Positions 5,494-43,050 are shown, counted from the stretch's first letter. The stretch is 64,000 bases of DNA from an uncultured Pseudomonadota bacterium (GCA_963749075.1 CAVVLJ010000021.1:685555-749554); one strand, 5' to 3'. Numbers and translations are program-made. Notes: a model not told the origin generated them from the letters alone.

Positions 5494-5760
5494 TCAAGAG
5501 GGGCCGCCGGAGGGGAGCCGCGATAGAGATTCCTCGCCCTTCCCGGGCAGCGGATCGTAGCCGCCGGCGCTCCACGGGTGGCAGCGCAGGAGCCGTCTCA
5601 GCGCCAGGAGCGAGCCCTTCACGGCACCCTCCTCCCGGAGTGCTGCCAGCGCATAGTTGGAGCAGCTCGGATGGAAGCGGCAGGCGCTCGGCAGGAGCGG
5701 GCTTAAGAGGAGCTGATAGCCGCGCACGAGCGCTGCGAGGAGCCGGGTGATCGCCGTCAT
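5494..5760 (-). CDS. yidD: Membrane protein insertion efficiency factor
   Basis: CRFHPSCSNY and RCHPW..GGYDP motifs. Confidence 0.95.
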   Translation of the reverse strand: MTAITRLLAALVRGYQLLLSPLLPSACRFHPSCSNYALAALREEGAVKGSLLALRRLLRCHPWSAGGYDPLPGKGEESLSRLPSGGPS

Positions 5761-5877
5761 GGTCGAGCCTCTATGATGCTTGCCGGCAGCACCCTGCGGC
5801 AGCTTGCCGCAGCGCCGCCCGAGCGTGCGCCGCTCGTTCGTCGGCAGGCGAACTCTTACACCCTTCCCCCATCGCCG

Positions 5878-6252
5878 TCACGCCTTGGCGCCGCCGACGC
5901 CAAGGCGCTCGAGGGCGGTCCGCAGGTCCTCGAGGAGCGCCGCGAAGGGCCGCCGAAGCGTGCCCGCGCGCGCGACGAGGACGAGGTCGTAGCCGGCTGC
6001 GGCAGCGGCCGGCAGGAGGCGGCGAGCCGCCTCGCGCAGACGCCGCCGCGCGCGGTTGCGGGCCACCGCTCCCCCCACCTTGCGGCTCGCGGTGAGGCCG
6101 AGGCGCACCTCATGCGCCGGCACGCTGGCGGGCTCCGCCGGCTTGCGCTGGTAGGCCTGGAGGATCAGCCCCGGCGCCACCCATTTGCGCCGGGCGGCGG
6201 CGACCCGCAGGAATTCCGGGCGCCGCTTGAGGCGGCCGAGCGGCTCGGCCAT
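5878..6252 (-). CDS. rnpA: Ribonuclease P protein component
   Basis: RLKRRPEF, RLGLTASRKVGGAVARNRARRRLRE. Confidence 0.95.
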   Translation of the reverse strand: MAEPLGRLKRRPEFLRVAAARRKWVAPGLILQAYQRKPAEPASVPAHEVRLGLTASRKVGGAVARNRARRRLREAARRLLPAAAAAGYDLVLVARAGTLRRPFAALLEDLRTALERLGVGGAKA

Positions 6253-6257
6253 GGCGC

Positions 6258-6392
6258 TCAGGCCGAGAGGCGCTTGCGCCCCTTGGCCCGGCGTGCCGCG
6301 AGGACGTTGCGCCCGCCGACCGTCTTCATGCGCGCACGGAAGCCGTGCCGGCGCTTGCGCACGAGGCGGCTCGGCTGATAGGTTCGCTTCAC
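6258..6392 (-). CDS. rpmH: 50S ribosomal protein L34
   Basis: Manual translation from GTG: [44 protein letters not shown] (44 aa, too short for the ORF track). Confidence 0.98.
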
Positions 6393-6532
6393 GGGTCTTT
6401 CCTCCGTCGATCGAGGCGGGCTTTGTAGGGGCTCCGGCCGGCGCTGTCAATTGCGCGCCTGGCGCTAAACTTGCCGGGCCTTGGCCGCATTAGGGTGCTG
6501 CATGCCTGCCGGCGTCGGTTATGATCGCCGCC

Positions 6533-7261
6533 ATGCGCGCACCGGAGCAATCGACGGCAGGTCCCTTCCCGCTCAAGCGCTGGCTGCCGCTCGCCGTGCT
6601 GCTCCTCGGCCTCGCCCTCTTCTTCGCCCTCGGCGGGGAGCGCTACGTGAGCTTCGAGACGCTGCGCGAGCGCCGCAGCGAGCTCATGCAGTTCGTCGCC
6701 GCCCACGCCCTCTTGGCCCCGCTTTGCTATCTGCTGGCCTACGCGGCGATGGCGGCCTTCTCGCTTCCCGGCGGAGCCGTCATGACCGTGCTCGGCGGCT
6801 TCCTCTTCGGGCCCTATGCCGGCACCGCCTATACCGTGGTGGGGGCGACGCTCGGTGCCTCCGTGGTCTTCCTCGTGGCGAAGAGCGCCTTCGGCGCCGT
6901 GCTCGCCGCCAGGGCCGGGCCGCAGCTCTCCAAGATGGAGGCGGGCTTCGGGAGGAATGCCTTGAGCTATCTTCTCGTGCTCCGCCTGGTGCCGCTCTTC
7001 CCCTTCTGGCTCGTCAATCTCGTCCCCGCCGTGCTCAACGTCCCGCTCGGCACCTATGTCCTCGGCACCTTTCTCGGCATCATTCCCGGGAGCTTCGTCT
7101 TCGCCCTTCTGGGCAGCGGCGTCGGCAGCGTTCTGGAAGCGGGCGAGCGGCCCGACCTCGGCGTCATTTTTCAGGGGAGGGTGCTTCTGGCACTCTCAGG
7201 CCTCGCGCTCCTCGCACTCCTGCCGGTCGCCTGCAAGGCGCTCAGGGCGAGGCGGCGCTGA
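6533..7261 (+). CDS. TVP38/TMEM64 (DedA/VTT) membrane protein
   Basis: Hydrophobic, LPG...GGFLFG and LRLVPLFPF..VN motifs. Confidence 0.9.
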   Translation: MRAPEQSTAGPFPLKRWLPLAVLLLGLALFFALGGERYVSFETLRERRSELMQFVAAHALLAPLCYLLAYAAMAAFSLPGGAVMTVLGGFLFGPYAGTAYTVVGATLGASVVFLVAKSAFGAVLAARAGPQLSKMEAGFGRNALSYLLVLRLVPLFPFWLVNLVPAVLNVPLGTYVLGTFLGIIPGSFVFALLGSGVGSVLEAGERPDLGVIFQGRVLLALSGLALLALLPVACKALRARRR

Positions 7262-7296: not shown

Positions 7297-8721
7297 ATGG
7301 TTGAGCCGCTCGAGGTCGACATCTGCGTCGTGGGAGGCGGCTCGGGCGGGCTGCTCGTCGCCGCCGCGGCTGGCCTCCTCGGCCGTCCCGTGGCACTCGT
7401 CGAGCGCGGCAAGATGGGCGGCGACTGCCTCAATTACGGCTGCGTGCCCTCGAAGTCGCTCATCGCGGCGGCGCGCATCGCCGCACTCGCCCGCAAAGGC
7501 CCGGCGTTCGGCATCGACTTGGGCGAGCCCGCCGTCGACTTCGCGCGCGTCCACGATCACGTCCACGGCGTCATCGCCGCCATAGCGCCCCACGATTCGG
7601 CGGAACGCTTCGAGGGCCTCGGCTGCAAGGTGATCCGCGCCGAGGGCCGCTTCGTCGGCCGCGGTCTTCTCGCGGCCGGCGAGTGGCGCATCCGCGCGCG
7701 GCGCTTCGTGATCGCGACCGGCTCCTCGCCCACAGTACCGCCGCTTCCGGGCCTGGCCGAGGTGCCCTATCTCACCAACGAGACGATCTTCGAGCTCAAG
7801 GGGCTGCCAAAGCATCTCGTCGTGCTGGGCGGCGGGCCGATCGGGGTCGAGCTCGCCCAGGCTTTCGCCCGGCTCGGCGCTCAAGTGAGCGTCGTCGAGC
7901 TCCTCGGCATCCTCGGCAACGACGATCCCGAGGCCGTGGACGTAGTGCGCCAGGCCCTCAGGCGCGACGGCGTGGCGCTCTATGAGGGGAGCCGGCTCGC
8001 GGCCCTCGAGCGCGCGGACGAGGGCATCGCGGCCGTGATCGAGCGCCAAGGCGAGAGCGTGAGGCTCGCGGGCTCCCATCTCCTCCTCGCCGCCGGACGC
8101 AGCGCCAACGTGGCCGGGCTCGGCCTCGAGGCGGCAGGGGTCGCCTATAGCGCGAAAGGGATCGCGGTCGACCGCCGGATGCGCACCACCAACAAGCGCA
8201 TCTTTGCCGTGGGCGACGTGGCCGGGCGCTTCCAGTTCACCCACATGGCCGCCCATCATGCCGGCGTCGTCGTGCGCAACGCGCTCTTCCGCCTGCCCGC
8301 CAAGGTGGAGGAGCGCGCCATACCGTGGGTCACCTACAGCGATCCCGAGCTCGCCCATGTCGGCCTGAGCGAGGCCGCGGCTCGCCAGGCGCACGGTCGC
8401 TTGCGCATCCTGCGCTGGGCCTTTGCCGAGAACGACCGCGCGCGGACGGAGCGCGCGTGCGACGGCTTCGCCAAGGTGATCGCCTCGCGGCGCGGCCGCG
8501 TGCTCGGCGCCACCATCGTGGGCGCGCAGGCGGGCGAGCTCATCCTCCCCTGGTGCCTGGCGGTCGCACGCCGGCTCAAGCTCGCGGCGCTCGCCGGGCT
8601 CATCGCCCCCTACCCCACGCTCGGCGAGATCAGCAAGAGCGCCGCCGGCAGCTATTTCACCCGCACGCTCTTCAGCGAGCGCACCAAGGCGCTCGTGCGG
8701 CTCCTGGCGCGGCTCGGATAG
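7297..8721 (+). CDS. Pyridine nucleotide-disulfide oxidoreductase (dihydrolipoamide dehydrogenase/MerA-like family)
   Basis: GGGSGG, redox GGDCLNYGCVPSK, GGGPIG and YPT motifs; usual partner of TVP38 genes. Confidence 0.9.
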   Translation: MVEPLEVDICVVGGGSGGLLVAAAAGLLGRPVALVERGKMGGDCLNYGCVPSKSLIAAARIAALARKGPAFGIDLGEPAVDFARVHDHVHGVIAAIAPHDSAERFEGLGCKVIRAEGRFVGRGLLAAGEWRIRARRFVIATGSSPTVPPLPGLAEVPYLTNETIFELKGLPKHLVVLGGGPIGVELAQAFARLGAQVSVVELLGILGNDDPEAVDVVRQALRRDGVALYEGSRLAALERADEGIAAVIERQGESVRLAGSHLLLAAGRSANVAGLGLEAAGVAYSAKGIAVDRRMRTTNKRIFAVGDVAGRFQFTHMAAHHAGVVVRNALFRLPAKVEERAIPWVTYSDPELAHVGLSEAAARQAHGRLRILRWAFAENDRARTERACDGFAKVIASRRGRVLGATIVGAQAGELILPWCLAVARRLKLAALAGLIAPYPTLGEISKSAAGSYFTRTLFSERTKALVRLLARLG

Positions 8722-8772
8722 GGGGAAAGTCCGCACTGCCCCGCCACCCGCTTTCGGCTATAATCCGGCGAA

Positions 8773-10182
8773 ATGGCGGAGACCCATCCGAGCCTTCCCA
8801 AGCCCCAGCACAGCCTTTCGGCCAAGCTGCTGGTCTTCACCGTGCTCTTCGTCATGGTCGCCGAGGTGCTGATCTACACGCCCTCGATCGCGCGCTTCCG
8901 CTACGACTACCTCATGGGGAAGATCGGCATGGCGCACTTGGCTGCCATGGCGCTCGAGGCCACGCCGACCCACATGCTGAGCCCGCAGCTCGAGATCGAG
9001 ATACTGCAATACGTCGACGCCTATTCGGTGGTGCTCGACATGCACGGCACCGAGCGCATGCTGGTGATGAACCGCGACATGCCGCCCACCGTCGACAAGA
9101 ATTACGACCTGCGCAAGTCCAACCTCTTCTCCCTCATCGCCAACGCCTTCGTGACGCTGGCGCAGACCCAGAACCGGGTGATCCGCGTGGTCGGCCCCTC
9201 GCCGCACAACCGCGGCATCTTCGTCGAGCTGGTGATCGACGAGGGGCCGCTGCGCCGCGCCATGTACGAGTTCTCCTGGCACATCCTCTCGCTCTCCATC
9301 GTCATCTCGCTGATCACCGCGGGCCTCCTCTATTTGAGCCTGCAATGGCTCCTCGTGCAGCCGATGCGGCGCATCACCGAGGGCATGGAGCGCTTCCGCA
9401 CGGCGCCCGAGGACGAGGAGAGCGTCATCGTGCCGAGCCAGCGGCGCGACGAGATCGGCATCGCCCAGCGCGAGCTGCAGCGCATGCAGGCCGACCTGCG
9501 CTCGGCGCTCCACGAGAAGACGCGGCTCGCCGCCCTAGGTGCTGCGGTCACCAAGATCACCCATGATCTGCGCAACATGCTGGCGACCGCCCAGCTCGTC
9601 TCCGACCGCCTCGGCGACAGCAAGGACCCCACGGTCAAGCGCGTGACGCCGACGCTGGTCGCCTCGCTGGACCGCGCCATCTCGCTCTGCGTCAATACGC
9701 TGCGCTTCGCGCGCGAGGAGAAGCCGGTGGTCGAGGCGCGGGTCTTCTCGCTCTCGCTCCTCGTCGAGGACGTAGGTGCGGTGCTCAGGCCCCAGGCGCC
9801 GGAGGGGAGCCGCTGGGTCAACGAGGTGGCGGACGGCTTCGCGCTCGCCGCCGACCGCGACCAGATGTTCCGCGTGCTCGTCAACCTCGGGCGCAACGCC
9901 TATCAGGCGGGCGCCACCGAGGTGGCGCTCGCCGCCTACCGCAACGAGGAAGGCGTCGTCCTCGAGATCCGCGACAACGGCGAGGGCATCGCACCCGCCG
10001 CGCGCGAGCGCCTCTTCGAGGCCTTCTCCGCCGCCGGCAAGCCGGGCGGCACCGGCCTCGGACTCGCCATCTCGCGCGACCTCCTGCGCGCCCACGGCGG
10101 CGACATCGAGCTCGCCGAGAGCCGCCCGGGCGAGACGCGCTTCCTCCTCATCCTGCCCCAGCGCCGCGCGGCGGCGGAATAG
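8773..10182 (+). CDS. HAMP-domain sensor histidine kinase
   Basis: Two TM segments, H-box KITHDLRN, N-box, DNGEGI, GTGLGLAI. Confidence 0.93.
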   Translation: MAETHPSLPKPQHSLSAKLLVFTVLFVMVAEVLIYTPSIARFRYDYLMGKIGMAHLAAMALEATPTHMLSPQLEIEILQYVDAYSVVLDMHGTERMLVMNRDMPPTVDKNYDLRKSNLFSLIANAFVTLAQTQNRVIRVVGPSPHNRGIFVELVIDEGPLRRAMYEFSWHILSLSIVISLITAGLLYLSLQWLLVQPMRRITEGMERFRTAPEDEESVIVPSQRRDEIGIAQRELQRMQADLRSALHEKTRLAALGAAVTKITHDLRNMLATAQLVSDRLGDSKDPTVKRVTPTLVASLDRAISLCVNTLRFAREEKPVVEARVFSLSLLVEDVGAVLRPQAPEGSRWVNEVADGFALAADRDQMFRVLVNLGRNAYQAGATEVALAAYRNEEGVVLEIRDNGEGIAPAARERLFEAFSAAGKPGGTGLGLAISRDLLRAHGGDIELAESRPGETRFLLILPQRRAAAE

Positions 10183-32632: not shown

Positions 32633-34427
32633 ATGAGCATTCGCCGGCTGCCCTTGAACCTGGTCAACCAGATCGCCGCCGGCGAGGTGGTGGAGCGCCC
32701 GGCCGCGGCCTTGAAGGAGCTCATCGAGAACGCCCTCGACGCCGGGGCTAGCCGCATCGAGGCGGCGCTTCGCGAGGGCGGGCGCACGCTCATCGCGGTC
32801 GCGGACGACGGCTCAGGCATGACGGCGGACGAGCTCCTCCTCGCCGTCGAGCGCCACGCCACCTCGAAGCTCCCCGAGGACGATTTGACGCGCATCGCCA
32901 CCTTGGGCTTCCGCGGCGAGGCGCTGCCCTCGATCGGCGCCGTCTCGCGCATGACGATTGCGAGCCGCGCGCGGGGTGCGTCCGACGCCTGGAGCCTCGC
33001 GGTCGAGGGCGGCGAGGTCGGCCGGCCGCAGCCGGCAGCGCAACCGACGGGCACGCGCGTCGAGGTGCGCGACCTCTTCTACGCGACGCCGGCCAGGCTC
33101 AAATTCATGAAGTCCGAGCGCAGCGAGCTCTTGGCCGCCATCGACGTGGTGAACCGCCTCGCCATGGCGCATCCGGCGGTGGCCTTCGCGCTCTCCGACG
33201 GCGCCCGCGCCTCCGTCAAGCTGCAGGCGGCCCAAGGCGATCTCCTGGACGCGCGGCTCGGGCGGCTCGAAGCGGTGATGGGCCGCGAGTTCGCCGACAA
33301 TGCGCTGCCAATCGCCGCCGAGCGCGAGGGCATCGGCCTCTCGGGCTATGCCGGCGTGCCGACGCTCAACCGTGCGACCGCGCAGCACCAGTACCTCTTC
33401 GTCAACGGCCGGCCGGTGCGCGACAAGCTCCTCTTCGGCGCCGTGCGCGGCGCCTACCAGGATTTCCTCGCGCGCGACCGCCACGCCATGCTCGCCCTCT
33501 TCCTCGAGCTCGCACCCGAGCTCGTCGACGTGAACGTGCATCCGAGCAAGGCCGAGGTGCGCTTCCGCGATGCCGGCCTGGTGCGCGGCCTCATCGTGAG
33601 TGCCTTGAAGCACGCGCTGGCGGCTGCCGGCCACCGCGCCTCGACCACCGTGGCCCACGCCGCGCTCGGCGCCTTCCAGCCGGCGTCGTCACCGGCCTAT
33701 GGCCGCGGCGCGGGCCACCTGCCGCGCGGCCTCGCCGAGGCGGCGGCGGCCTATTTCGCACCGGCCGCGGGCGAGGCGTTGCCGGGCCTGGCCGCGGCGC
33801 CCGAGGTGCGGCCGCTCGCGGCGGACGCTGGCGAGGACGAGACCGCCTATCCCTTGGGCGCCCCGCGGGCCCAGCTCCACGGCACCTACATCGTGGCCGA
33901 GACGGCCGACGGCATCGTCATCGTCGACCAGCACGCGGCCCACGAGCGCCTCGTCTACGAGCGCATGAAGCGGGCCCTCGAGGGGCGCGGCGTCGCCCGC
34001 CAGCTCCTCCTCATCCCCGAGGTCGTCGAGCTCGACGAGCCCGCGGCCGAGCGCCTCTCGCGCCGTGCTGCCGAGCTCGCCGAGCTCGGCCTCGTCCTCG
34101 AGCCCTTCGGCCCGGGTGCGGTCGTCGTGCGCGAGATGCCGGCGCTCTTGGGCGAGTGCGACATTGCGAGGCCTCGTGCGCGATCTCGCCGACGAGCTGG
34201 CCGAGCTCGGCCAGGCGCTCTCCTTGAAGGAGCGCCTCGAGGAGGTCTGCGGCACGCTCGCCTGCCACACGAGCGTGCGCGCCGGAAGGCGCTTGGGCCG
34301 CGCCGAGATGTCGGCGCTCCTGCGCGAGATGGAGGCCACCCCCCACTCCGGCCAGTGCAACCACGGCCGCCCCACCTACGTCGAGCTCAAGCGCGCGGAT
34401 ATCGAGCGGTTGTTCGGGCGGCGCTAA
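32633..34427 (+). CDS. mutL: DNA mismatch repair protein MutL, frameshift near 34165
   Basis: [32 protein letters not shown]; ACH and CNHGRPT lie in the shifted frame. Confidence 0.95.
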
Positions 34428-34428
34428 G

Positions 34429-34583
34429 TTCCCCTCTCCTCCTTCAGGAGGAGAGGGTCAGGGTGAGGAGGTCGCGCTGCAAGGCACGTTGTCGGCCGCA
34501 GAAGCGCGCAAGCACCCGGCCTCCTCACCTTCCCATCGCTTCGCGATGGGCCCCTTCCTCTCCTCCTGAAGGAGGAGAGGGAA
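34429..34583. repeat. About 155-bp palindromic repeat (CCCTCTCCTCCTTCAGGAGGAGAGGG family), copy 1
   Basis: Terminal inverted hairpins and internal CCCATCGCTTCGCGATGGG; similar copy at 46361-46514; lies between convergent mutL and rsmD. Confidence 0.88.
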
Positions 34584-34586
34584 TGG

Positions 34587-35186
34587 TTAAGGGCTTGCTT
34601 CTGCCGCCTGCCAGCGCAGGAAGAGGAGGCGGGTGCGGCCGTAGTGGCGCTCGTCGAGTAGGGCGAAGCCCGCGGGGAGGGGAAAGGATTCGCGGCGGTC
34701 GAGCTCGACGACGGCGAGCGCTCCGGGCTTGAGCCAGCCGGCCGCGGCGAGGGCTTGAAGTGCCGCGGGTGCGAGGCCGCTCCTATAGGGCGGGTCGAGG
34801 AAGACGAGATCGCGCGGGCCCGGGCCGCCGCGCACCTTCTCGCGCAACGGCGGGCGGCAGACGTTGGCCTGGAGGAGGGTGGCGTGCGCCTCCTCGCCGA
34901 GCGATTTCAAATTTCGCCGGGCGCATTCGAGCGCGCTCAGGTCGGAATCGAGGAACACCACATGGGCAGCACCGTGGGAGAGCGCCTCGAGGCCGAGGGC
35001 GCCCGAGCCGGCGCAGGCGTCGAGCACCGCTGCCTCCTCGACGAGCGGGCCGTCCTCGGCGGCGATGCGGCCTTGGAGGAGGATGTTGAAGAGGCTCTCG
35101 CGCACGCGGTCCTGGGTCGGCCGCACCGATTCGTCCTCGGGCGCCGCGATGGTGCGGCCGCGGTGCCTACCCGCGGTGATGCGCAT
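34587..35186 (-). CDS. rsmD: 16S rRNA m2G966 methyltransferase
   Basis: [35 protein letters not shown]. Confidence 0.95.
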
Positions 35187-36667: not shown

Positions 36668-36848
36668 GGCGGGGAATGTAGGGCGGTTCGGGGGGAAGGG
36701 CAATGCGGGGGGGCCTGTGTGTTGTGCCAAGGACGGACATGTACGCATCCGTGCCGAGTCACGATCAGCGACTGGAAACGAAACCGGTCGTTGGCCTCGC
36801 AAAGCGACTAGAGCCGCCGCCGCGCAGGAGCCCTGACGTGCCCACGGA

Positions 36849-39308
36849 TCACGGCTTGGCTAGAAGATTGAGGTTTAGCGCACCGCAACCGCATCGCAAG
36901 CCTTCCTTCTTCTCCCCTTGTTCGGGAACGACATAGAACATTTCTTGGCATGTGGAGCAGGTGAACGCCCCGGTGAAGCCTTTGAAGGCGGCCACCACTG
37001 GTTCGAAATCCGGCTTCTGTAGGTTCGCCCATGCGTTGAAATGGACAGCTGTGTTTATCTGCCATTGCTCATGACCAGTCTTTGTCTTGGCGTCCGCAAA
37101 AGCCGCGTCGCGAGTCGCAATCGAACCGACGGCGTCCTTCTGGCCCCAAGAGTTCGCTGCGGCCTTTGCCCTCTTGAAGAGCTCGCCGAGCGCACGCGTT
37201 GCGCTGGGGAGAAGGTCGCCGAGGGTAAACTGGGCATCACCACGAAACTCGACGTTGGCACGGAGGCGATCGCAGGTTTCCTTCGCGAAGTGTTCAAGAT
37301 AGTGTCGTAGGAGGGCGGCTGCTGCGCGAATGTCATTCTTAGCGAGATGGGCGTCCAATTCGGCCCAGACATCATGATCATTCCATTCGGTTGGCCCCAT
37401 GTCGACGTTCCACGTCCTGAAGTGGGCGAAGCTGCGTCCCTTGATCAAGCCCTCCGACCTCATGTGCTTGAGCCAAATCTCGTCGTGGGTCGTGAAGATG
37501 AACTGCGTGCTCGGAAAGTGCTCCTTGAGAAGTGTGCAAACCTGCCGCCGATGTCCGGTGTCGACCGACATCAGCACGTCGTCCAAGACTGCAAGGGTGA
37601 AATTGTCTCCGAGCAGATAGCGCATCAGTGCCAGGTATAGACACAGACCCATTCCATCTTGGTGTCCTTCGCTATGGTAGGCACCCGGCGGGAAGTGCCC
37701 GCGACCGTAAAAATCCACATCGAACCCCAGCTTGCCGATGGATGGCATCAGCCTGGCTGTGAACGTGCTCTCGTCCTCATGGTTCATCTCGCGGTAAAAT
37801 TCCGAGAAGGTCGCTTCGACATCCTTGTAGATGCCTTCAAGAGCCTTTGTGGTAACCTGAGCGTATAGATCGAAGACCTTTGATGCGCGTTCGGCGCGCA
37901 ACTTGCCGATGGCGACCTTCTGCCTGGCCCTACGGTATTGCTCGAGCCGCTCCTGAGCTACCACCAGAAATTCGCGTGCGGCGTCTTGCTTGGTCGGCTC
38001 TGGAATTGCGGCGACGCCGGCCGCCAGCGCCGTGATCGTCGTCGCGAGATCAGGTGCCTGGTGCGCCGCAAGCAACACGGCGCGAGTATCGTCGAGTGGC
38101 AACAGTTTTTGCAGTTGCGCGTAGCGGCCGGCCAGAATGGCCTTGAAGTCATTTAAGGCGGTGACCTCGACGGGCGGATTGAGCTGAGCGCCGTAGCCGA
38201 TGACCGTTGCCAGCGCGCTTCCAACCGCATGAATAACATCCATCAACGGACCGATCTGTGCTTCCAAGGCTCTTCGTTTTACGGTCACGGCCTCGAAGTG
38301 TTTCAGTTTTTCTGCTACGTGCTGTCGGAAAGCATCCGGTTCAAAAGGCGTGTCGCAGACCGGACAGACCTTGTCATCATAGAAATCGAGCGCGGACCGG
38401 AGCAATGCTTCGCGGGATACGGCGTCGAGGCTGTCAGCGTCCTTTGTGAGTTCGGCCGCTGCGGATGCAGCCGCGACGCATGTCTCTTTAAACGCTTCAG
38501 ACCGCAGCTTCTCAAGGGCGTCCTTTAGCGTCGTCAAATCGCCCGTTGCTTGGACCTTTGGAACGCGAGCGGGTGCTGCGCCGGTGGAAGCGGTTGCCAA
38601 ACCGTCCTTCACGGAGGTTGTCGCATCGAGCACTGTAAAAGCGGGTAGGCCCAAAAGCTCGCGCTTGGGGTTGACGGCCCCAAGGACGCTGGATTTGGAC
38701 AATTGGGCGACACCGAGCGCGGCCAGGAGATGTGAAATGGCATCCATTTCCGTGCGCTCCAGCGGCGGAAGCTCGCGGGCGCACGCATTAGAAATCTTTT
38801 GCAGGACCGTTCGCAGTTTTTCGATATCGTCAAGCCGTAGGAGAGCCTGCACCTCTTTAGAGCGTTGGCCTGGTTCGGACAGGACGTAACGGATCAACTC
38901 ACGCCGGGACAAGACGAACTCGGGATGAAGCTTCACATTGTCGAACGCGGCCTGGACGTCAACATCATTCGGCGTGATTGTCGGAACGCCCGCTGCTTTG
39001 ACGGTCCGGTGAATGGTCGCCCTTTTTCCGCCCAGCGACGGGATGACGACATCAAGAGTGACGAAGGATCGATCGGGCTTGTTCCGGCTGTCGACGTGCG
39101 GACCGTGTGCTTTTACCGAAAGTCCGCCCGTGCCGCTTCCGGACAGGCGAGAAATGCTCCCAGTCAGCCCAAACTCAATGGCGTCGACGATGCCGCTTTT
39201 GCCGGTTCCGTTCGGACCGCATGCGGCAAAGTTCTGGTCTTTGGTATCCAGCGTGAGGTCGCGAATACCGCGAAACTCATGTATCCGCAGCTTCTCGATC
39301 CGGATCAT
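36849..39308 (-). CDS. Rad50/SMC-like ABC ATPase with Zn-hook, HEPN-like C-terminal domain and Zn ribbon (RloC-like architecture)
   Basis: Walker A GPNGTGKS, coiled coil with CPVC, signature HSEGH, Walker B VLDDVLMSVD, H-loop TTHD, LLRHYLE...TLGDL...INTAVHFN, CSTC...CGC. Confidence 0.8.
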   Translation of the reverse strand: MIRIEKLRIHEFRGIRDLTLDTKDQNFAACGPNGTGKSGIVDAIEFGLTGSISRLSGSGTGGLSVKAHGPHVDSRNKPDRSFVTLDVVIPSLGGKRATIHRTVKAAGVPTITPNDVDVQAAFDNVKLHPEFVLSRRELIRYVLSEPGQRSKEVQALLRLDDIEKLRTVLQKISNACARELPPLERTEMDAISHLLAALGVAQLSKSSVLGAVNPKRELLGLPAFTVLDATTSVKDGLATASTGAAPARVPKVQATGDLTTLKDALEKLRSEAFKETCVAAASAAAELTKDADSLDAVSREALLRSALDFYDDKVCPVCDTPFEPDAFRQHVAEKLKHFEAVTVKRRALEAQIGPLMDVIHAVGSALATVIGYGAQLNPPVEVTALNDFKAILAGRYAQLQKLLPLDDTRAVLLAAHQAPDLATTITALAAGVAAIPEPTKQDAAREFLVVAQERLEQYRRARQKVAIGKLRAERASKVFDLYAQVTTKALEGIYKDVEATFSEFYREMNHEDESTFTARLMPSIGKLGFDVDFYGRGHFPPGAYHSEGHQDGMGLCLYLALMRYLLGDNFTLAVLDDVLMSVDTGHRRQVCTLLKEHFPSTQFIFTTHDEIWLKHMRSEGLIKGRSFAHFRTWNVDMGPTEWNDHDVWAELDAHLAKNDIRAAAALLRHYLEHFAKETCDRLRANVEFRGDAQFTLGDLLPSATRALGELFKRAKAAANSWGQKDAVGSIATRDAAFADAKTKTGHEQWQINTAVHFNAWANLQKPDFEPVVAAFKGFTGAFTCSTCQEMFYVVPEQGEKKEGLRCGCGALNLNLLAKP

Positions 39309-39514
39309 GCCGCGTCCGGAAATAATGCGGCCCGAATTGCCGGCTCAGCGAAGACGCCATCATCTAGGACCACCTCCCGTAACTTCGGGGCGATGTCTGC
39401 AAGCCCTTCCGTTTTCGCGAGCTCGTCGAAGAATTTGGAGAGCACAGCATGGGCAACGGTTGTCACCGGAGCGGAGCTTTCTTCGGATTCTGATGTCGGC
39501 TCGTTTTCCGTCAT
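39305..39514 (-). CDS. Small acidic helical protein translationally coupled to the ATPase
   Basis: 69 aa, strong SD AGGAGG, ATGA overlap with the ATPase start. Confidence 0.8.
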   Translation of the reverse strand: MTENEPTSESEESSAPVTTVAHAVLSKFFDELAKTEGLADIAPKLREVVLDDGVFAEPAIRAALFPDAA

Positions 39515-39532
39515 GGCTTTCCTCCTACATGT

Positions 39533-39561
39533 ATTATAAGTTGCGTGGAGTTGTTCGTCAC
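39533..39561 (-). promoter_or_regulatory. Sigma70 promoter of the small protein-ATPase operon
   Basis: GTGACG-17 bp-TATAAT on the minus strand just upstream of the SD. Confidence 0.7.
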
Positions 39562-39870
39562 GCGCGTATTTGGGGAACTACTGGAGCGGGAACCGGCAAG
39601 ACGGAATTTGTGCGCATCGGCCGCAACAAAGATGGCGCGGTCCGGCAGGAATCCGGTCTGGCCGATAACCGGTGCGAATACGTCTCGTCGCGCCGCACGC
39701 AACAGCACTTTTTGGGCCGGGGACAGCAATGGTCGCTCCTGGCGACTTACGGAGGGGCGTGATCGCGGAACGGGGTCCAGAGGGGGTTCGAGCCGGATCA
39801 GATCACGACGTTCGGCATCGTGAATTGCTACGTCAGCTAAGTGCCGATAGACGCGTCCAAGGAGAAAACA

Positions 39871-40362
39871 ATGATTGAGGTATGTCATAATCTCTTTGTT
39901 GGCTCACAGGATGATGAGGTCAGCATTCGTGGCCAAACCGGCTGGTTCGTTGTTCACGCCTGCAAAGAGCCTTATCACCGGGAAGCGTTGGGTTACAGAG
40001 GTCAAGGTGCGCCGAAAGCTCATCCCGAATATCTCGTCGCCCGGCGCAAAGGTTGCGTGATTCTCAATCTTATCGACGCCGATGATGTCAAATTCATTCC
40101 GCCAGAATTAATCGATGCCGCGTTAAGCGACATTCATCAGAACATCGCATCAAGCAAGGTTCTGGTTCACTGCAACCAAGGCATGTCTCGATCACCGACG
40201 ATTGCCTTTTTGTATTTGTTGAGATTCTCCGATTTGTTTGATGGGCAAGATCACCAAAAAGGTTTGCAGAACTTCAAAAGGCTCTATCCGGTCTATGTTC
40301 CGAAGCAGGGCATGGCCGATTATGTCAAACTAAACTGGCTCAGATATGCGTCTAGAGAATAA
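39871..40362 (+). CDS. Dual-specificity (Cys-based) phosphatase
   Basis: VLVHCNQGMSRS = HCxxGxxRS, N-terminal LFVG, SD AAGGAG. Confidence 0.92.
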   Translation: MIEVCHNLFVGSQDDEVSIRGQTGWFVVHACKEPYHREALGYRGQGAPKAHPEYLVARRKGCVILNLIDADDVKFIPPELIDAALSDIHQNIASSKVLVHCNQGMSRSPTIAFLYLLRFSDLFDGQDHQKGLQNFKRLYPVYVPKQGMADYVKLNWLRYASRE

Positions 40363-40372
40363 GTGCAGACCC

Positions 40373-40936
40373 TCACCCCGTACGACCGAATTGATAATCC
40401 ACGCCCGTCATCCGAATTCGCCACTTCAGCATGTCAAGGCTAACGCCAAAGTGTTGGGCCGCCGTCGAATCAGTCATGCGATTGGCGCGCATCCAGAGCA
40501 AGGCAGGCCTGGGCAGTAACATTGTGCCACCAAGCCAATCCGCCTCTGCCTCCTGCGCTTCGTCGTAATTGCCATTGAGGAAATGGCCATCTGCTGTCCG
40601 GCCGGCCGTGGCTAATTCGTGGCCTAGCATGATGTGAGACAGCTCGTGCATGAGCACGCTGTTAATTCGAGCCGCGGCCAGCTTTGGATTGTAGACCACG
40701 AGATAGTGGTCGTCCTCGCGCAGGACGAATGCCGACCATTCGTCGCTGGCCACTTTGAGTAGATGGTTGCGGTCTTTATCCGGCCAGCCCGGAATTTCGG
40801 ATGCCGACCAAATGGTGACCCCGAGGTGCACACCTAGACGCCTCGCGTCTAGTCGCGCGGCCAACTCGATGCCAAGTGTCTTTCTAATCTCCAGCGAGCG
40901 GCGTTCACACTGCGCTTTGAACCCGCGCCGAAGCAA
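40373..40936 (-). CDS. ImmA/IrrE family Zn metallopeptidase (CapP-like)
   Basis: MHELSH (HExxH), QEAEADWLGGTMLLPR, C-terminal HTH AQHFGVS. Confidence 0.92.
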   Translation of the reverse strand: MLRRGFKAQCERRSLEIRKTLGIELAARLDARRLGVHLGVTIWSASEIPGWPDKDRNHLLKVASDEWSAFVLREDDHYLVVYNPKLAAARINSVLMHELSHIMLGHELATAGRTADGHFLNGNYDEAQEAEADWLGGTMLLPRPALLWMRANRMTDSTAAQHFGVSLDMLKWRIRMTGVDYQFGRTG

Positions 40937-40938
40937 TC

Positions 40939-41298
40939 TCAGTGCCCTTCTGACCCGATCTTCTCGACAAATTTTTTGTGTGCCGCAATGATAAGACTCG
41001 CGAGGGACTTCGCCGTCTGGGCGCTGAAAGTACGGCCTTGCTTGAAGCCGATTTGAACCGCAGGCATTGACGGCGCCTTTACACCGTGGCTACCCGCTCC
41101 ACCGATTACCAGCGCGGGGTCAATGTTCAGCCACGCGCAAACTTTGCCCAGCGTTCGACTGTCCGGAAGATGTCCGCGCTCGATTCGAGATAGGGTCGCG
41201 GGGCTAGTGCCAATTTCGTGCGCCGCCGCTCTGATGCCCATGCTCCCGCGCTTCTGGGCCACTTTTTGTCCCAATGCTTCAGGGGAAAGTTGTGCCAT
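40939..41298 (-). CDS. XRE-family HTH regulator (CapH-like)
   Basis: MGIRAAAHEIGTSPATLSRIERGHLPD HTH; co-transcribed with the peptidase. Confidence 0.92.
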   Translation of the reverse strand: MAQLSPEALGQKVAQKRGSMGIRAAAHEIGTSPATLSRIERGHLPDSRTLGKVCAWLNIDPALVIGGAGSHGVKAPSMPAVQIGFKQGRTFSAQTAKSLASLIIAAHKKFVEKIGSEGH

Positions 41299-41308
41299 GC
41301 CGTCTCCT

Positions 41309-41374
41309 GTCTCAGATTGGAAAAAACAGTTTCAATTGTGATACAAATGCGCTAGTATGTCTTAAAGCTGAAAC
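41309..41374. promoter_or_regulatory. Three imperfect palindromic operators (approximately GTYTCA-N4-TGAAAC) in a divergent promoter
   Basis: GTCTCAgattGGAAAA (41309), GTTTCAattgTGATAC (41329), GTCTTAaagcTGAAAC (41359). Confidence 0.55.
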
Positions 41375-41443
41375 AGCCACATCGAATCACGGCGATTCGT
41401 GGCCGTCAAGCGGAAGTTGGCTCATTGAGAGGATCACGAGGCA

Positions 41444-41869
41444 ATGGCTGCTAAATCCTATGCCCTGACTTTCAAGGGGTACTACCTAGAGTCCGGTATT
41501 GGCGGGCTTCCGGCCGAGTCGGGAATCTATTGCGTGTATGCTTGCACCTATGACGCAGCAAAAGATACGGTCAGTCTCCGCCGGCTGATTTACATCGGAG
41601 AATCCGATGACGTGCAAGACCGGGTGAAGAACCACGAGAAGTGGTCCGTTTGGCGCAGAGAGCTGAGGTCGGGCGAGGAACTTTGCTTCAGCTGCGCGCT
41701 CATCTCCGGGGAAGACGATCGGCAGCGCGCCGAGGCAGCGGAGATTTTCGAGCATAAGCCGCCCTGTAATACCGAATATAAACATGAGTTTCCGTTCGAT
41801 CGAACTACGATCACGAATAGCGGCAAGGCTGCGCTGCTTCACAGCCACTTCACGGTTGAGCGGACTTAA
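41444..41869 (+). CDS. Stand-alone GIY-YIG nuclease family protein
   Basis: GIYCVY...LIYIGES...DRVKNH...AEAAEI...PPCN. Confidence 0.88.
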   Translation: MAAKSYALTFKGYYLESGIGGLPAESGIYCVYACTYDAAKDTVSLRRLIYIGESDDVQDRVKNHEKWSVWRRELRSGEELCFSCALISGEDDRQRAEAAEIFEHKPPCNTEYKHEFPFDRTTITNSGKAALLHSHFTVERT

Positions 41870-41935
41870 GCCTGCGCGGCGATGTCCTAGACTGCGTGTG
41901 TGCGTTGTCGACGGTTGTAACCAGGAGGTGAGAAG

Positions 41936-42253
41936 ATGTCCGAGAGTGATACTCATAAGCGGGCGAAATCTCGTGCGGCCGGCGCTGGGGGTCAGACGGA
42001 GGTGCCGTTGACGGGTGGCCGCCGGCTGGACGCGTTGTCGGATGCCGGGCGCGCGACAGAGGTCGAGCGGAGCGGCAACATGAACAGTCTCAAGGCGGCT
42101 GCCCGGCGTCTTCGGGATGCACCCGGGAATCAGAGGGTGTTGCAGGTGCCTCAGCAAGACATGGACAAAGCTGCTGCGGCGATGAGGCAGATTGAAGTCG
42201 CCGGAACCGTGAAAAATTTGATCGGGACGAAGCGCCGCAGCATTCGGCCTTAA
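41936..42253 (+). CDS. Small putative PD-(D/E)xK nuclease-fold protein (CoiA-like motif)
   Basis: SD AGGAGG; ESDTHKRAK...TEV...RRLDAL...ATEVERSG. Confidence 0.6.
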   Translation: MSESDTHKRAKSRAAGAGGQTEVPLTGGRRLDALSDAGRATEVERSGNMNSLKAAARRLRDAPGNQRVLQVPQQDMDKAAAAMRQIEVAGTVKNLIGTKRRSIRP

Positions 42254-42564
42254 TTGCAATCGCCGAGCATGCGTCGGAGGCCTGTCGCTGCTGGAGAGGT
42301 TCCCTTTTTGCGGCTGAAAGCGCTGAACTTGCCGATCTCCGGGATTGGGATGATACTGCTTCGGGCCCGATGGCCCGCTGCGGATCATTGCCGCCCACCG
42401 ACCCCATGAAACCGATATCCGGAGCCGTTACTCGAGTCATACGGCTATAGTGCCAGCCACCAGCCTTGTTCGTTCACCTGCGTCGCGGCATGCCGCCCGC
42501 CCTCGCGCCCACCCACCCCCTCCCCGCTTGACGGCCCACCCCCTCTCCCGCCAACCTTCCCCCC

Positions 42565-43050
42565 ATGCCGCCGCGCAAGCTCTCCTACATGGCGACCGCC
42601 CTCGCCCGGGCCGAGGCCGCCGCCGCGCGCGGCGAGGTGCCGGTGGCGGCGCTCATCGTCGACGGCCGCGGCGAGATCGTGGCGGCGGCGGAGAACCGCA
42701 TGCGCGAGGCGGGCGATCCCACGGCGCACGCCGAGATGCTCGCCATCCGCGAGGCCTGCGCGCGGCTCGGCGAGGGGCGGCTCGGGGCGTGCGACATCTA
42801 CGTCACCCTCGAGCCTTGCGCCATGTGCGCGGCTGCCATCTCGTTAGCGCGGCTACGCCGGCTCTACTTCGCGGCCTATGATGCCAAGGGCGGCGGCGTC
42901 GAGCATGGCGCGCGCGTCTTCGCGCAAGTGACCTGCCACCACCGGCCCGAGGTCTATGGCGGCATCGACGAGCGGCGCGCGGCGGCCCTTATGGCGCGTT
43001 TCTTCGCCGCGCTCCGCGCCGCCGCGGGCGGCACGCAAGAGGAAGGATGA
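42565..43050 (+). CDS. tadA: tRNA adenosine deaminase
   Basis: GEVPV, DPTAHAE, TLEPCAMC. Confidence 0.9.
   Translation: MPPRKLSYMATALARAEAAAARGEVPVAALIVDGRGEIVAAAENRMREAGDPTAHAEMLAIREACARLGEGRLGACDIYVTLEPCAMCAAAISLARLRRLYFAAYDAKGGGVEHGARVFAQVTCHHRPEVYGGIDERRAAALMARFFAALRAAAGGTQEEG

Follow-up and report, generated by a model that had tools for sequence, protein, structure and literature searches.

An ABC (ATP-binding cassette) ATPase that regulates a HEPN RNase is a recurrent and independently evolved defence design (PMC3710099), and in RloC it takes the form of a Rad50-like switch joined to a HEPN tRNase. Here we describe a locus that resembles RloC in some respects and the Lamassu and SbcCD systems in others. 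It lies in a stretch of 64,000 nt from an uncultured Pseudomonadota bacterium (GCA_963749075.1 CAVVLJ010000021.1:685555-749554), referred to below as the window, and it occupies positions 36849..39561, where the gene for a 69-aa acidic protein (the partner) runs into the gene for an 819-aa Rad50/SbcC-type ATPase. We think it probable, if well short of certain, that the pair is an undescribed, horizontally mobile two-gene module of abortive infection, RloC/Lamassu-like in kind and most likely directed against phage or plasmid. Behind this stand the conservation of the gene pair, its mobility, the invariance of its motifs, a likeness in fold at the HEPN level and a predicted interface between the two proteins, all of which were obtained by computation. 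A literature search found no description of this ATPase-partner family.

Comparison with described systems

RloC carries the motif Arg-X3-Glu-X36-52-His, and R692, E696 and H737 were each found to be essential by mutagenesis (PMC2610378). The window ATPase has its parts in the same order, namely an ABC head, a coiled coil with CPxC near residue 300, the ABC head again and a C-terminal helical domain of nuclease type; the sizes are similar (770-804 aa in RloC, 819 aa here), both have an invariant Arg-x3-Glu followed by a hydrophobic residue and Asn-x3-His (PMC2610378), the Arg of the HEPN motif Rx4-6H is missing in the RloC clade used here too, and both are patchily distributed and laterally transferred. 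There are differences, however. RloC, a wobble-nucleotide-excising anticodon nuclease, belongs to Pfam AAA_13/COG4694, whereas the window head scores with SMC_N, Rad50 and LmuB; its Pfam matches are SMC_N (5.5e-15, residues 4-617) and also AAA_23, AAA_13 (PF13166) is absent from them at E <= 0.1 and was not found in the window's whole genome, and a sequence search of the PDB matched Rad50 and SMC heads (best 1.4e-7). Furthermore the window protein has an extra four-cysteine (4-Cys) ribbon and an obligate small partner, whereas rloC spreads without an external silencer (PMC3458546).

In the long form of Lamassu (LmuA-LmuC-LmuB) the gene for LmuC immediately precedes that for LmuB; LmuC is similar to the C-terminal domain by which SbcD binds SbcC, and LmuB keeps a single CxxC and a hhhhDD-type Walker B (2025 study, PMC12663957). 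LmuB is the best PADLOC model of the window ATPase (PDLC03859, 6.5e-17, covering residues 259-618 only, with mad3 and PtuA similar), the single CxxC hook and the hhhhDD Walker B are shared, and in both systems a small gene comes immediately ahead of the SMC-like one; the product of the window's small gene is predicted to sit near the heads like the C-terminal domain of SbcD (PMC12663957). Unlike Lamassu the window pair has no separate LmuA, the effector-like domain being fused to the ATPase, and no third conserved gene accompanies it. Its small protein, of only 69 aa, matches no family of Pfam (2025), NCBIfam 20.0 (2026) or PADLOC 2.0.0, the LmuC model included; these libraries hold no model for the partner or for the tail.

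With SbcCD and Mre11-Rad50 the window unit shares a head, a coiled coil and a zinc hook, and the predicted seat of its partner is on the base of the coiled coil by the head, which we take to be the place where Mre11 or SbcD holds Rad50 or SbcC. This placing is consistent with the Lamassu study (PMC12663957). The unit differs in having no phosphoesterase subunit and no conserved Metallophos neighbour, in the much shorter coiled coil and the HEPN-like tail of its ATPase, and in being accessory and mobile rather than vertically inherited. In PrrC and the ABC-ATPase-HEPN fusions APECO1_4465 and ERFG_01251 a C-terminal HEPN RNase is under the control of an ABC ATPase; PrrC, however, lacks both coiled coil and hook and needs a linked type I restriction-modification system. 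Such fusions are a known and repeatedly evolved theme of which this pair would be an undescribed variant, and the families of APECO1_4465 and ERFG_01251, taken here from their description, are unlikely to be identical with the window family.

Conservation and mobility of the gene pair

The search for related loci covered one genome per species (185,579 species); a single protein as query found nothing, an alignment-based scan worked, and 290 of the 349 candidate stretches encode relatives, which places them in 290 species genomes from many phyla. The analyses of loci cover the 80 best of these (46-75% identity) plus the window, 81 in all, and the 80 come from Alpha-, Beta- and Gammaproteobacteria, Bacteroidota, Verrucomicrobiota, Acidobacteria, Omnitrophota, Patescibacteria, Elusimicrobiota, Spirochaetes and further phyla. 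A hidden Markov model (HMM) of the small protein matches 74 of the 81 loci, and in all seven of the misses (L005, L025, L057, L062, L067, L073 and L076) the ATPase gene is N-terminally incomplete or interrupted, so that conservation of the small open reading frame (ORF) upstream of homologues, which the original prediction from the window's sequence had asked about, is borne out. The stop and start codons overlap as ATGA in 62 of the 71 loci evaluated. Such recurrence of the pair across phyla goes far beyond chance. No third gene is conserved, the commonest true cluster of neighbours being present in 7 of 81 loci.

Damaged copies of the pair are also found. At L021 (5620-9131) the ATPase gene is in two pieces, 5620-6849 and 7776-9131, with ~0.9 kb between the ORFs, and at L004 (5591-8370) the ATPase is without its first 28 residues and the small gene is inverted upstream; L004 is counted among the 74 loci with a small gene, despite this inversion next to a 5'-truncated ATPase gene.

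The 120 best homologues of the ATPase are 749-835 aa long with 61-100% identity, and 114 of them are 815-840 aa. Their source names include AAA ATPase, 'RecF/RecN/SMC', 'chromosome segregation protein SMC' and 'recombinational DNA repair ATPase RecF'. Homologues occur on 19 plasmid records, 7 of them conjugative, where they are annotated only as 'AAA family ATPase | hypothetical protein'. The family reaches archaea, since a plasmid of Halorhabdus tiamatea (NC_021913.1, 307704-310157) carries a full-length homologue with 28% identity over residues 2-815.

In the window the operon lies in a low-GC island of ~5.9 kb, and the sequences that flank this island (to ~36683 and from ~42585) are ~105-146 nt apart in all five genomes of the same genus. 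The ~5.9 kb is an insertion, since the flanks nearly adjoin in these five congeners. A profile of the family was run on 61 genomes, the window's own and 60 relatives (same genus, 5; same family, 5; same class, 50), and found the gene only in the window's own. The flanks of the island show no convincing direct repeats or att-like sites, and there is no integrase inside it. The 121 flanking ORFs scanned at 42 loci include genes of conjugation, integration and defence; among them are TraG-type coupling proteins and type IV secretion systems (T4SS), integrases, insertion sequence (IS) transposases, SIR2, CHAT with caspase, a PIN-GHKL protein, a restriction enzyme, AbiEi and HepT.

The ATPase and the motifs of its tail

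The 819-aa protein has all the ABC motifs and the mid-coil CPVC hook that had been predicted. Motifs and hook are intact as computed here; most residues of the ABC motifs are invariant in an alignment of 21 homologues, as are C315, P316 and C318 of the hook and L157, R158, D161, E163, R166 and L169 in the outgoing base of the coiled coil. The Pfam match to Rad50_zn_hook is sub-threshold (E 7.8e-4, 19.7 bits against a cut-off of 24.3).

Residues 620-819 are not covered by any Pfam family. The tail was scored against 1.84 billion representatives, of which 692 proteins match it at E <= 1e-3, and the alignment comprises the best 150 cluster representatives (<=50% identity to each other) plus the window sequence. 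Of these 150, 101 are 780-860 aa in length, none is longer and the 49 shorter ones are fragment-like; Walker A is present in all 101 full-length representatives and the CPxC hook in 100 of them. Because the full-length ones all have ATPase motifs, the tail is not seen on another architecture among the best 150.

The motifs read in the tail by the original prediction, RHYLE, TLGDL (695-699) and INTAVH followed by CxxC and CxC, are all present. R668 is kept in 150 of 150 non-gap rows, E672 and H756 in 151 of 151, N752 in 150 of 151 and the four cysteines in 145-148 of about 150 rows; H673 is kept in 15 of 151 only. PADLOC matches to 62 tails were at chance level, with Csx1/Csm6 in 2 of 62 (best E 9.7e-4) and PDC-S48 at E 0.012, and the ESM Atlas gave unnamed clusters only, for the tail as for the small protein. 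A sub-threshold lead (0.81) in the ESM Atlas to a cluster with AAA_13 on 13% of its members prompted the comparison with RloC and is not used as evidence.

Fold of the tail and the RloC control

HEPN domains are four-helix up-down bundles with Rx4-6H at the end of helix 3, the Arg usually being followed by N, D or H, and with an acidic residue in helix 2; helices 2 and 3 are often separated by an insert, and the Arg has been lost in some families (PMC3710099). An AlphaFold2 model of the tail, built from 62 tails (predicted local distance difference test, pLDDT, 83.2), has helices at 31-40, 44-66 (which carries R and E), 80-104, 108-128 and 149-164 in the numbering of the tail, with N-x3-H in a distorted stretch directly before the last helix, and then three short strands with the cysteine pairs. 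E672 lies inside helix 44-66, the upstream core helix, where HEPN has its conserved acidic residue, and when the model is set beside the published description N-x3-H sits where HEPN domains carry Rx4-6H (PMC3710099).

With VIA, an aligner independent of Foldseek, the best match to the tail model is 4nqf_B (Z 6.7, root-mean-square deviation 4.3, 111 aligned), followed by 2hsb (6.2), the Roquin N-terminus (5.9), sacsin HEPN (5.8) and AbiA (5.8), and then 1ufb, 1wwp, 1ylm, 1wol, 5yep_B and 1jog. Named or known HEPN domains make up 9 of the top 13 rows, at Z 5.2-6.7, in a range (below 8) that by the tool's own note is weak for helical domains and may mean a mere common helical arrangement.

As a positive control the same was done for RloC, using genes that include L081 (770 aa, CPFC at 294) and relatives with the source name 'wobble nucleotide-excising tRNase'. 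In 29 aligned RloC C-domains R60, E64, N99 and H103 are invariant and I98 nearly so. Their model (pLDDT 77.1) has a best VIA Z of 6.6 (1wwp_B), and the rows that it recovers include 8xdj, Csm6, 2hsb, 4nqf, 1wol, 2jpu, Roquin, 5yep, 1ufb, 1ylm, sacsin, 1jog, 3mfn and AbiA, so that 11 of the top 13 rows of the window tail recur in the top 24 of RloC. The tail is as HEPN-like as the RloC nuclease domain, which has been classed as HEPN and shown to be an RNase, since the set of HEPN matches agrees and the Z scores are equal (maximum 6.7 against 6.6). The order of helices is also alike; in both models the second helix carries R-x3-E, and the fourth has N-x3-H at its end. R668, E672, N752 and H756 are put forward as a candidate active site, by analogy with the Arg-x3-Glu...His triad of RloC that they mirror. 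A sequence search of the PDB found no structure of RloC or PrrC. A search of 401 genomes of the same phylum with an RloC protein gave nothing at E <= 1e-20 and is uninformative.

The small partner protein

The 69-aa protein has a net charge of -9 and consists of a variable acidic N-tail of about 18 aa followed by a three-helix part. Among 46 sequences the N-tail has a median length of 16.5 aa and is acidic in 35, the three-helix part is acidic in 43, and F28, L45 and A63 are near-invariant. A search for longer or fused forms found one 139-aa protein only, probably an over-long start call, which is weak evidence against fusions.

A complex of the full ATPase (21-row alignment) and the small protein (46 rows) was modelled in three runs, with three controls. 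The ipSAE score is 0.62 (0.61-0.63 over the runs) against 0.01 for the best control, a mark reached by 116 of 157 solved complexes and 2 of 215 mismatched pairs, though the pass may partly stem from likeness to, or memory of, solved Rad50-Mre11 structures. The runs share at least 75% of contacts and the pLDDT of the partner is at least 69. On the ATPase the predicted interface takes in residues 157-172 and 467-493 plus 565, that is both coiled-coil strands at their exit from the head, and on the partner residues 19-67, near-invariant F28 included. The model supports binding of the two proteins, short of proof. The original prediction had suggested that the partner may be an inhibitor or adaptor; because the predicted contact is the base of the coiled coil and not the nuclease domain, the partner looks more like a subunit of the SbcD-C-terminal-domain/LmuC type than a classic antitoxin.

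Proposed mechanism and alternative explanations

From these results we infer an RNase activity, its trigger, the role of the partner and a defence phenotype. The sensor would be the Rad50/SbcC-type ATPase, dimeric through its zinc-hook coiled coil and responding to DNA ends or damage, and the effector would be the fused C-terminal HEPN-like domain, acting as a metal-independent RNase with R668, E672, N752 and H756, whilst the 4-Cys ribbon would probably help to hold RNA or to pair two tails. The translationally coupled partner would clamp the base of the coiled coil beside the head, in a seat like that of SbcD/Mre11, and set or gate the ATPase switch. When foreign or broken DNA is sensed, an ATP-driven movement of the heads, tuned by the partner, would free the RNase, which would then cut tRNA or other RNA so that translation stops.

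A more far-reaching version, which we offer tentatively and which taken as a whole we think unlikely, is that the pair represents an independent line of immune sensors of the Rad50 type, the third of its kind, with a minimal subunit like the C-terminal domain of SbcD as in Lamassu and a fused HEPN RNase as in RloC. It would then be a living intermediate that links SbcCD, Lamassu and RloC. The partner would be a neck-bound gate and not an antitoxin, with an acidic tail that mimics DNA on the surface of the head; real DNA ends would displace it and ATP-driven engagement of the heads would release the RNase. The 4-Cys ribbon would pair the tails into a composite site, in which Arg668, from the first core helix, would replace the lost Arg of Rx4-6H.

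A number of results weigh against the reading of the pair as an abortive-infection module with a HEPN RNase, in addition to the cautions given above for the VIA scores and for the complex model. Foldseek found no match in the PDB for the tail model (best E 0.9), a PDB search with the tail profile gave nothing below E 0.28, and Pfam run on 62 tails gave no HEPN family, with only chance-level matches to zinc-ribbon or IBR families in up to 5 of the 62. By hhalign the 62 tails align with RloC C-domains at a probability of 0.2% with a narrow profile and 0.26% with a more diverse one, and the full-length proteins align only at Walker A, the hook (CPFC), the signature and Walker B (E 0.0046, probability 7.6%). 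The spacing from Glu to His is 83 here against 38 in the control RloC clade (36-52 published), because two helices are longer in the tail than in RloC. All 151 rows have I, V, L, M or T, and none has Arg, at position 751, the site of the Rx4H Arg. Furthermore no homologue was found in 50,697 phage records, and many of the neighbourhoods consist of ordinary metabolic genes.

None of the three refuting outcomes that the original prediction had named was seen, but its interpretation is supported in part only, and its claims about the tail are accordingly narrowed. That it is HEPN-like agrees with its best structural matches, which are HEPN domains and equal those of the RloC control, but not with the low Z scores or with the negative outcome of Foldseek, Pfam, PDB and hhalign. 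That it lacks the canonical Arg is correct for Rx4-6H, but incomplete, as there is an invariant Arg-x3-Glu in RHYLE, in agreement with the catalytic triad of RloC/PrrC, and RloC itself reads I-N-x3-H. That it belongs to a distinct RloC-related system agrees with its architecture and motif, although homology was not shown, and because the profile comparison and the sequence searches were negative we limit 'RloC-related' to these two. RloC and the window protein are alike in architecture, in fold class and in the pattern of the active site, which does not establish a shared ancestry of the tails and may reflect convergence.

It would seem rather unlikely, if worth serious attention, that the pair is an SMC-like machine for handling DNA that has no RNase, with the tail as a non-catalytic helical domain that binds nucleic acid or a partner and ends in a zinc ribbon; such a machine could act on DNA in plasmid exclusion, as Wadjet does, or help to repair or maintain the mobile element on which it resides. 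The head is indeed Rad50/SMC-like, the canonical Rx4-6H Arg is absent, zinc ribbons commonly bind nucleic acids, and members of the family are often found on plasmids and next to T4SS genes. Some HEPN domains are also non-catalytic binders (PMC3710099). However, R, E, N and H stay near-invariant in sequences of <=50% identity and form the catalytic pattern of RloC, a degree of conservation typical of an active site, and no conserved nuclease or kleisin/KITE partner is encoded nearby. Less likely again is a toxin-antitoxin addiction module, in which the small acidic protein is a labile antitoxin that neutralises the nuclease and the pair stabilises plasmids or islands and is not anti-phage, though this is compatible with the abortive-infection reading; the small acidic gene comes first with a stop/start overlap, which is the order of type II modules, the family occurs on plasmids, and RnlA-RnlB is one known example of a HEPN toxin with an antitoxin upstream (PMC3710099), but the predicted interface is at the base of the coiled coil and not on the tail, no DNA-binding fold or family that could serve in autoregulation is recognisable in the small protein, and an ATP-driven sensor of 819 aa exceeds the needs of a simple toxin.

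That the gene is a housekeeping DNA-repair paralogue of SbcC, RecN or RecF is very improbable and is already contradicted. It has in its favour the source names RecF/RecN/SMC and weak NCBIfam matches of the N-terminal P-loop region to recF, Rad50 and SbcC, but these scores are far below the curated cut-offs, with no model near its own (recF 42 against 172 bits, sbcC 16.6 against 478), and no conserved SbcD/Mre11 gene lies alongside. The original prediction had raised a grouping with housekeeping SbcC/RecN; against this, the gene is borne on an inserted low-GC island and absent from 60 of 60 relatives searched, and the true recN of the same genome is a normal one on another contig (431.9 bits).

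If the pair is an abortive-infection module as we propose, an unrecognised family that spans phyla would be added to the bacterial immune repertoire, one that defence-finding tools and annotators miss because databases name its members RecF, SMC or 'AAA ATPase'. The RloC design, a Rad50-like switch with a HEPN tRNase, and the Lamassu/SbcCD design, with a small subunit near the heads, would be joined in one compact pair. This would provide a two-protein system for asking how a zinc-hook ATPase converts the sensing of DNA to the activation of a nuclease, and also how HEPN sites work without the canonical arginine. Were the tail non-catalytic, the pair would still be a new mobile SMC-like complex with an obligate mini-subunit.

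Organisation of the locus and its neighbourhood

The promoter, Shine-Dalgarno AGGAGG, ATGA overlap and two ORFs of the original prediction were all confirmed at the positions that it had given, and lie on the minus strand (Table 1), the overlap being between the TGA of the small ORF and the ATG of the ATPase ORF. The promoter call draws its support from position alone, because promoter-like sites are no more numerous in the region than expected by chance (2, compared with 1.0 +/- 1.0 in shuffles).

Table 1. Features of the gene pair and its island, in window coordinates
Feature	Position	Strand	Basis
Low-GC island of ~5.9 kb with the operon	36683..42585	.	GC 50-60% against about 72% in the flanks; comparison with congeners
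Sigma-70-like promoter GTGACG-17-TATAAT	39533..39561	-	10/12 positions match
Shine-Dalgarno AGGAGG	39521..39526	-	Read from the sequence; 6 nt before the small-ORF ATG at 39514
ORF of the 69-aa acidic partner	39305..39514	-	Sequence, small-protein HMM, alignment
819-aa Rad50/SbcC-type ABC ATPase with zinc-hook coiled coil and effector-like C-terminal tail	36849..39308	-	Sequence, Pfam, PDB search
Walker A GPNGTGKS, residues 31-38	39195..39218	-	Invariant in the 21-homologue alignment
Outgoing coiled-coil base, residues 157-172, predicted contact of the small protein	38793..38840	-	Complex model
Zinc hook CPVC, residues 315-318	38355..38366	-	Alignment, sub-threshold Pfam match
Returning coiled-coil base, residues 467-493, predicted contact of the small protein	37830..37910	-	Complex model
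ABC signature HSEGHQD (545-551) through Walker B LAVLDD (572-577)	37578..37676	-	21-homologue alignment
H-loop TTHD (606-609), end of the ATPase head	37482..37493	-	Pfam, 21-homologue alignment
C-terminal tail, residues 617-819, HEPN-like helical domain and 4-Cys ribbon	36852..37460	-	Model, alignment
Invariant R668-x3-E672 in RHYLE (668-672)	37293..37307	-	Alignment
Invariant N752-x3-H756 in INTAVH (751-756), just before the last core helix	37041..37055	-	Alignment, model
Zinc-ribbon-like C784-x2-C787 ... C806-x-C808 (CSTC 784-787, CGC 806-808)	36885..36959	-	Alignment, model

The end of a 125-aa ORF at 39511-39888 (-) overlaps the first codon of the 69-aa gene in another ATGA, and this ORF spans the promoter-like site of that gene; it is probably spurious or a remnant, since it has no Pfam family and no counterpart upstream of the pair in other loci. 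The other genes of the island lie between 39841 and 41869, and none of them recurs beside the pair elsewhere. They are an ORF like dual-specificity phosphatases (39841-40362, +; DSPc 5e-7, below cut-off), an ImmA/IrrE M78 peptidase (40373-40936, -) directly after a gene of the XRE helix-turn-helix type (40939-41298, -), and a GIY-YIG-like ORF (41444-41869, +) that matches the PADLOC candidate PDC-S14 at 2e-5.

At L001 (858-5767), L021 (1819-5394) and L023 (5385-9208) the pair adjoins another SbcCD-like pair, with an AAA_27/SMC_N ATPase of 900-1190 aa; a Metallophos gene is also present at L001 and L023 and a TraG-type coupling protein stands beside the pair at L001 and L021, which suggests that these regions are cargo of conjugative elements. 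The sole match in the viral collection (L107, 3849-10862) has the pair next to RcGTA-type genes (GTA_TIM, Phage-tail_3, Rcc01698_C, DUF2793 and peptidase M15), and these surroundings are a gene-transfer-agent cluster and not a recognisable phage.

Elsewhere in the window, the reading frame of mutL (32633-34732, +) seems to shift around 34100-34200, so that the 699-aa ORF has a normal N-terminal part and an Arg-rich nonsense tail. The canonical C-terminus of MutL is found in another frame, in an ORF at 34065-34427, and the cause is either a frameshift or an assembly error.

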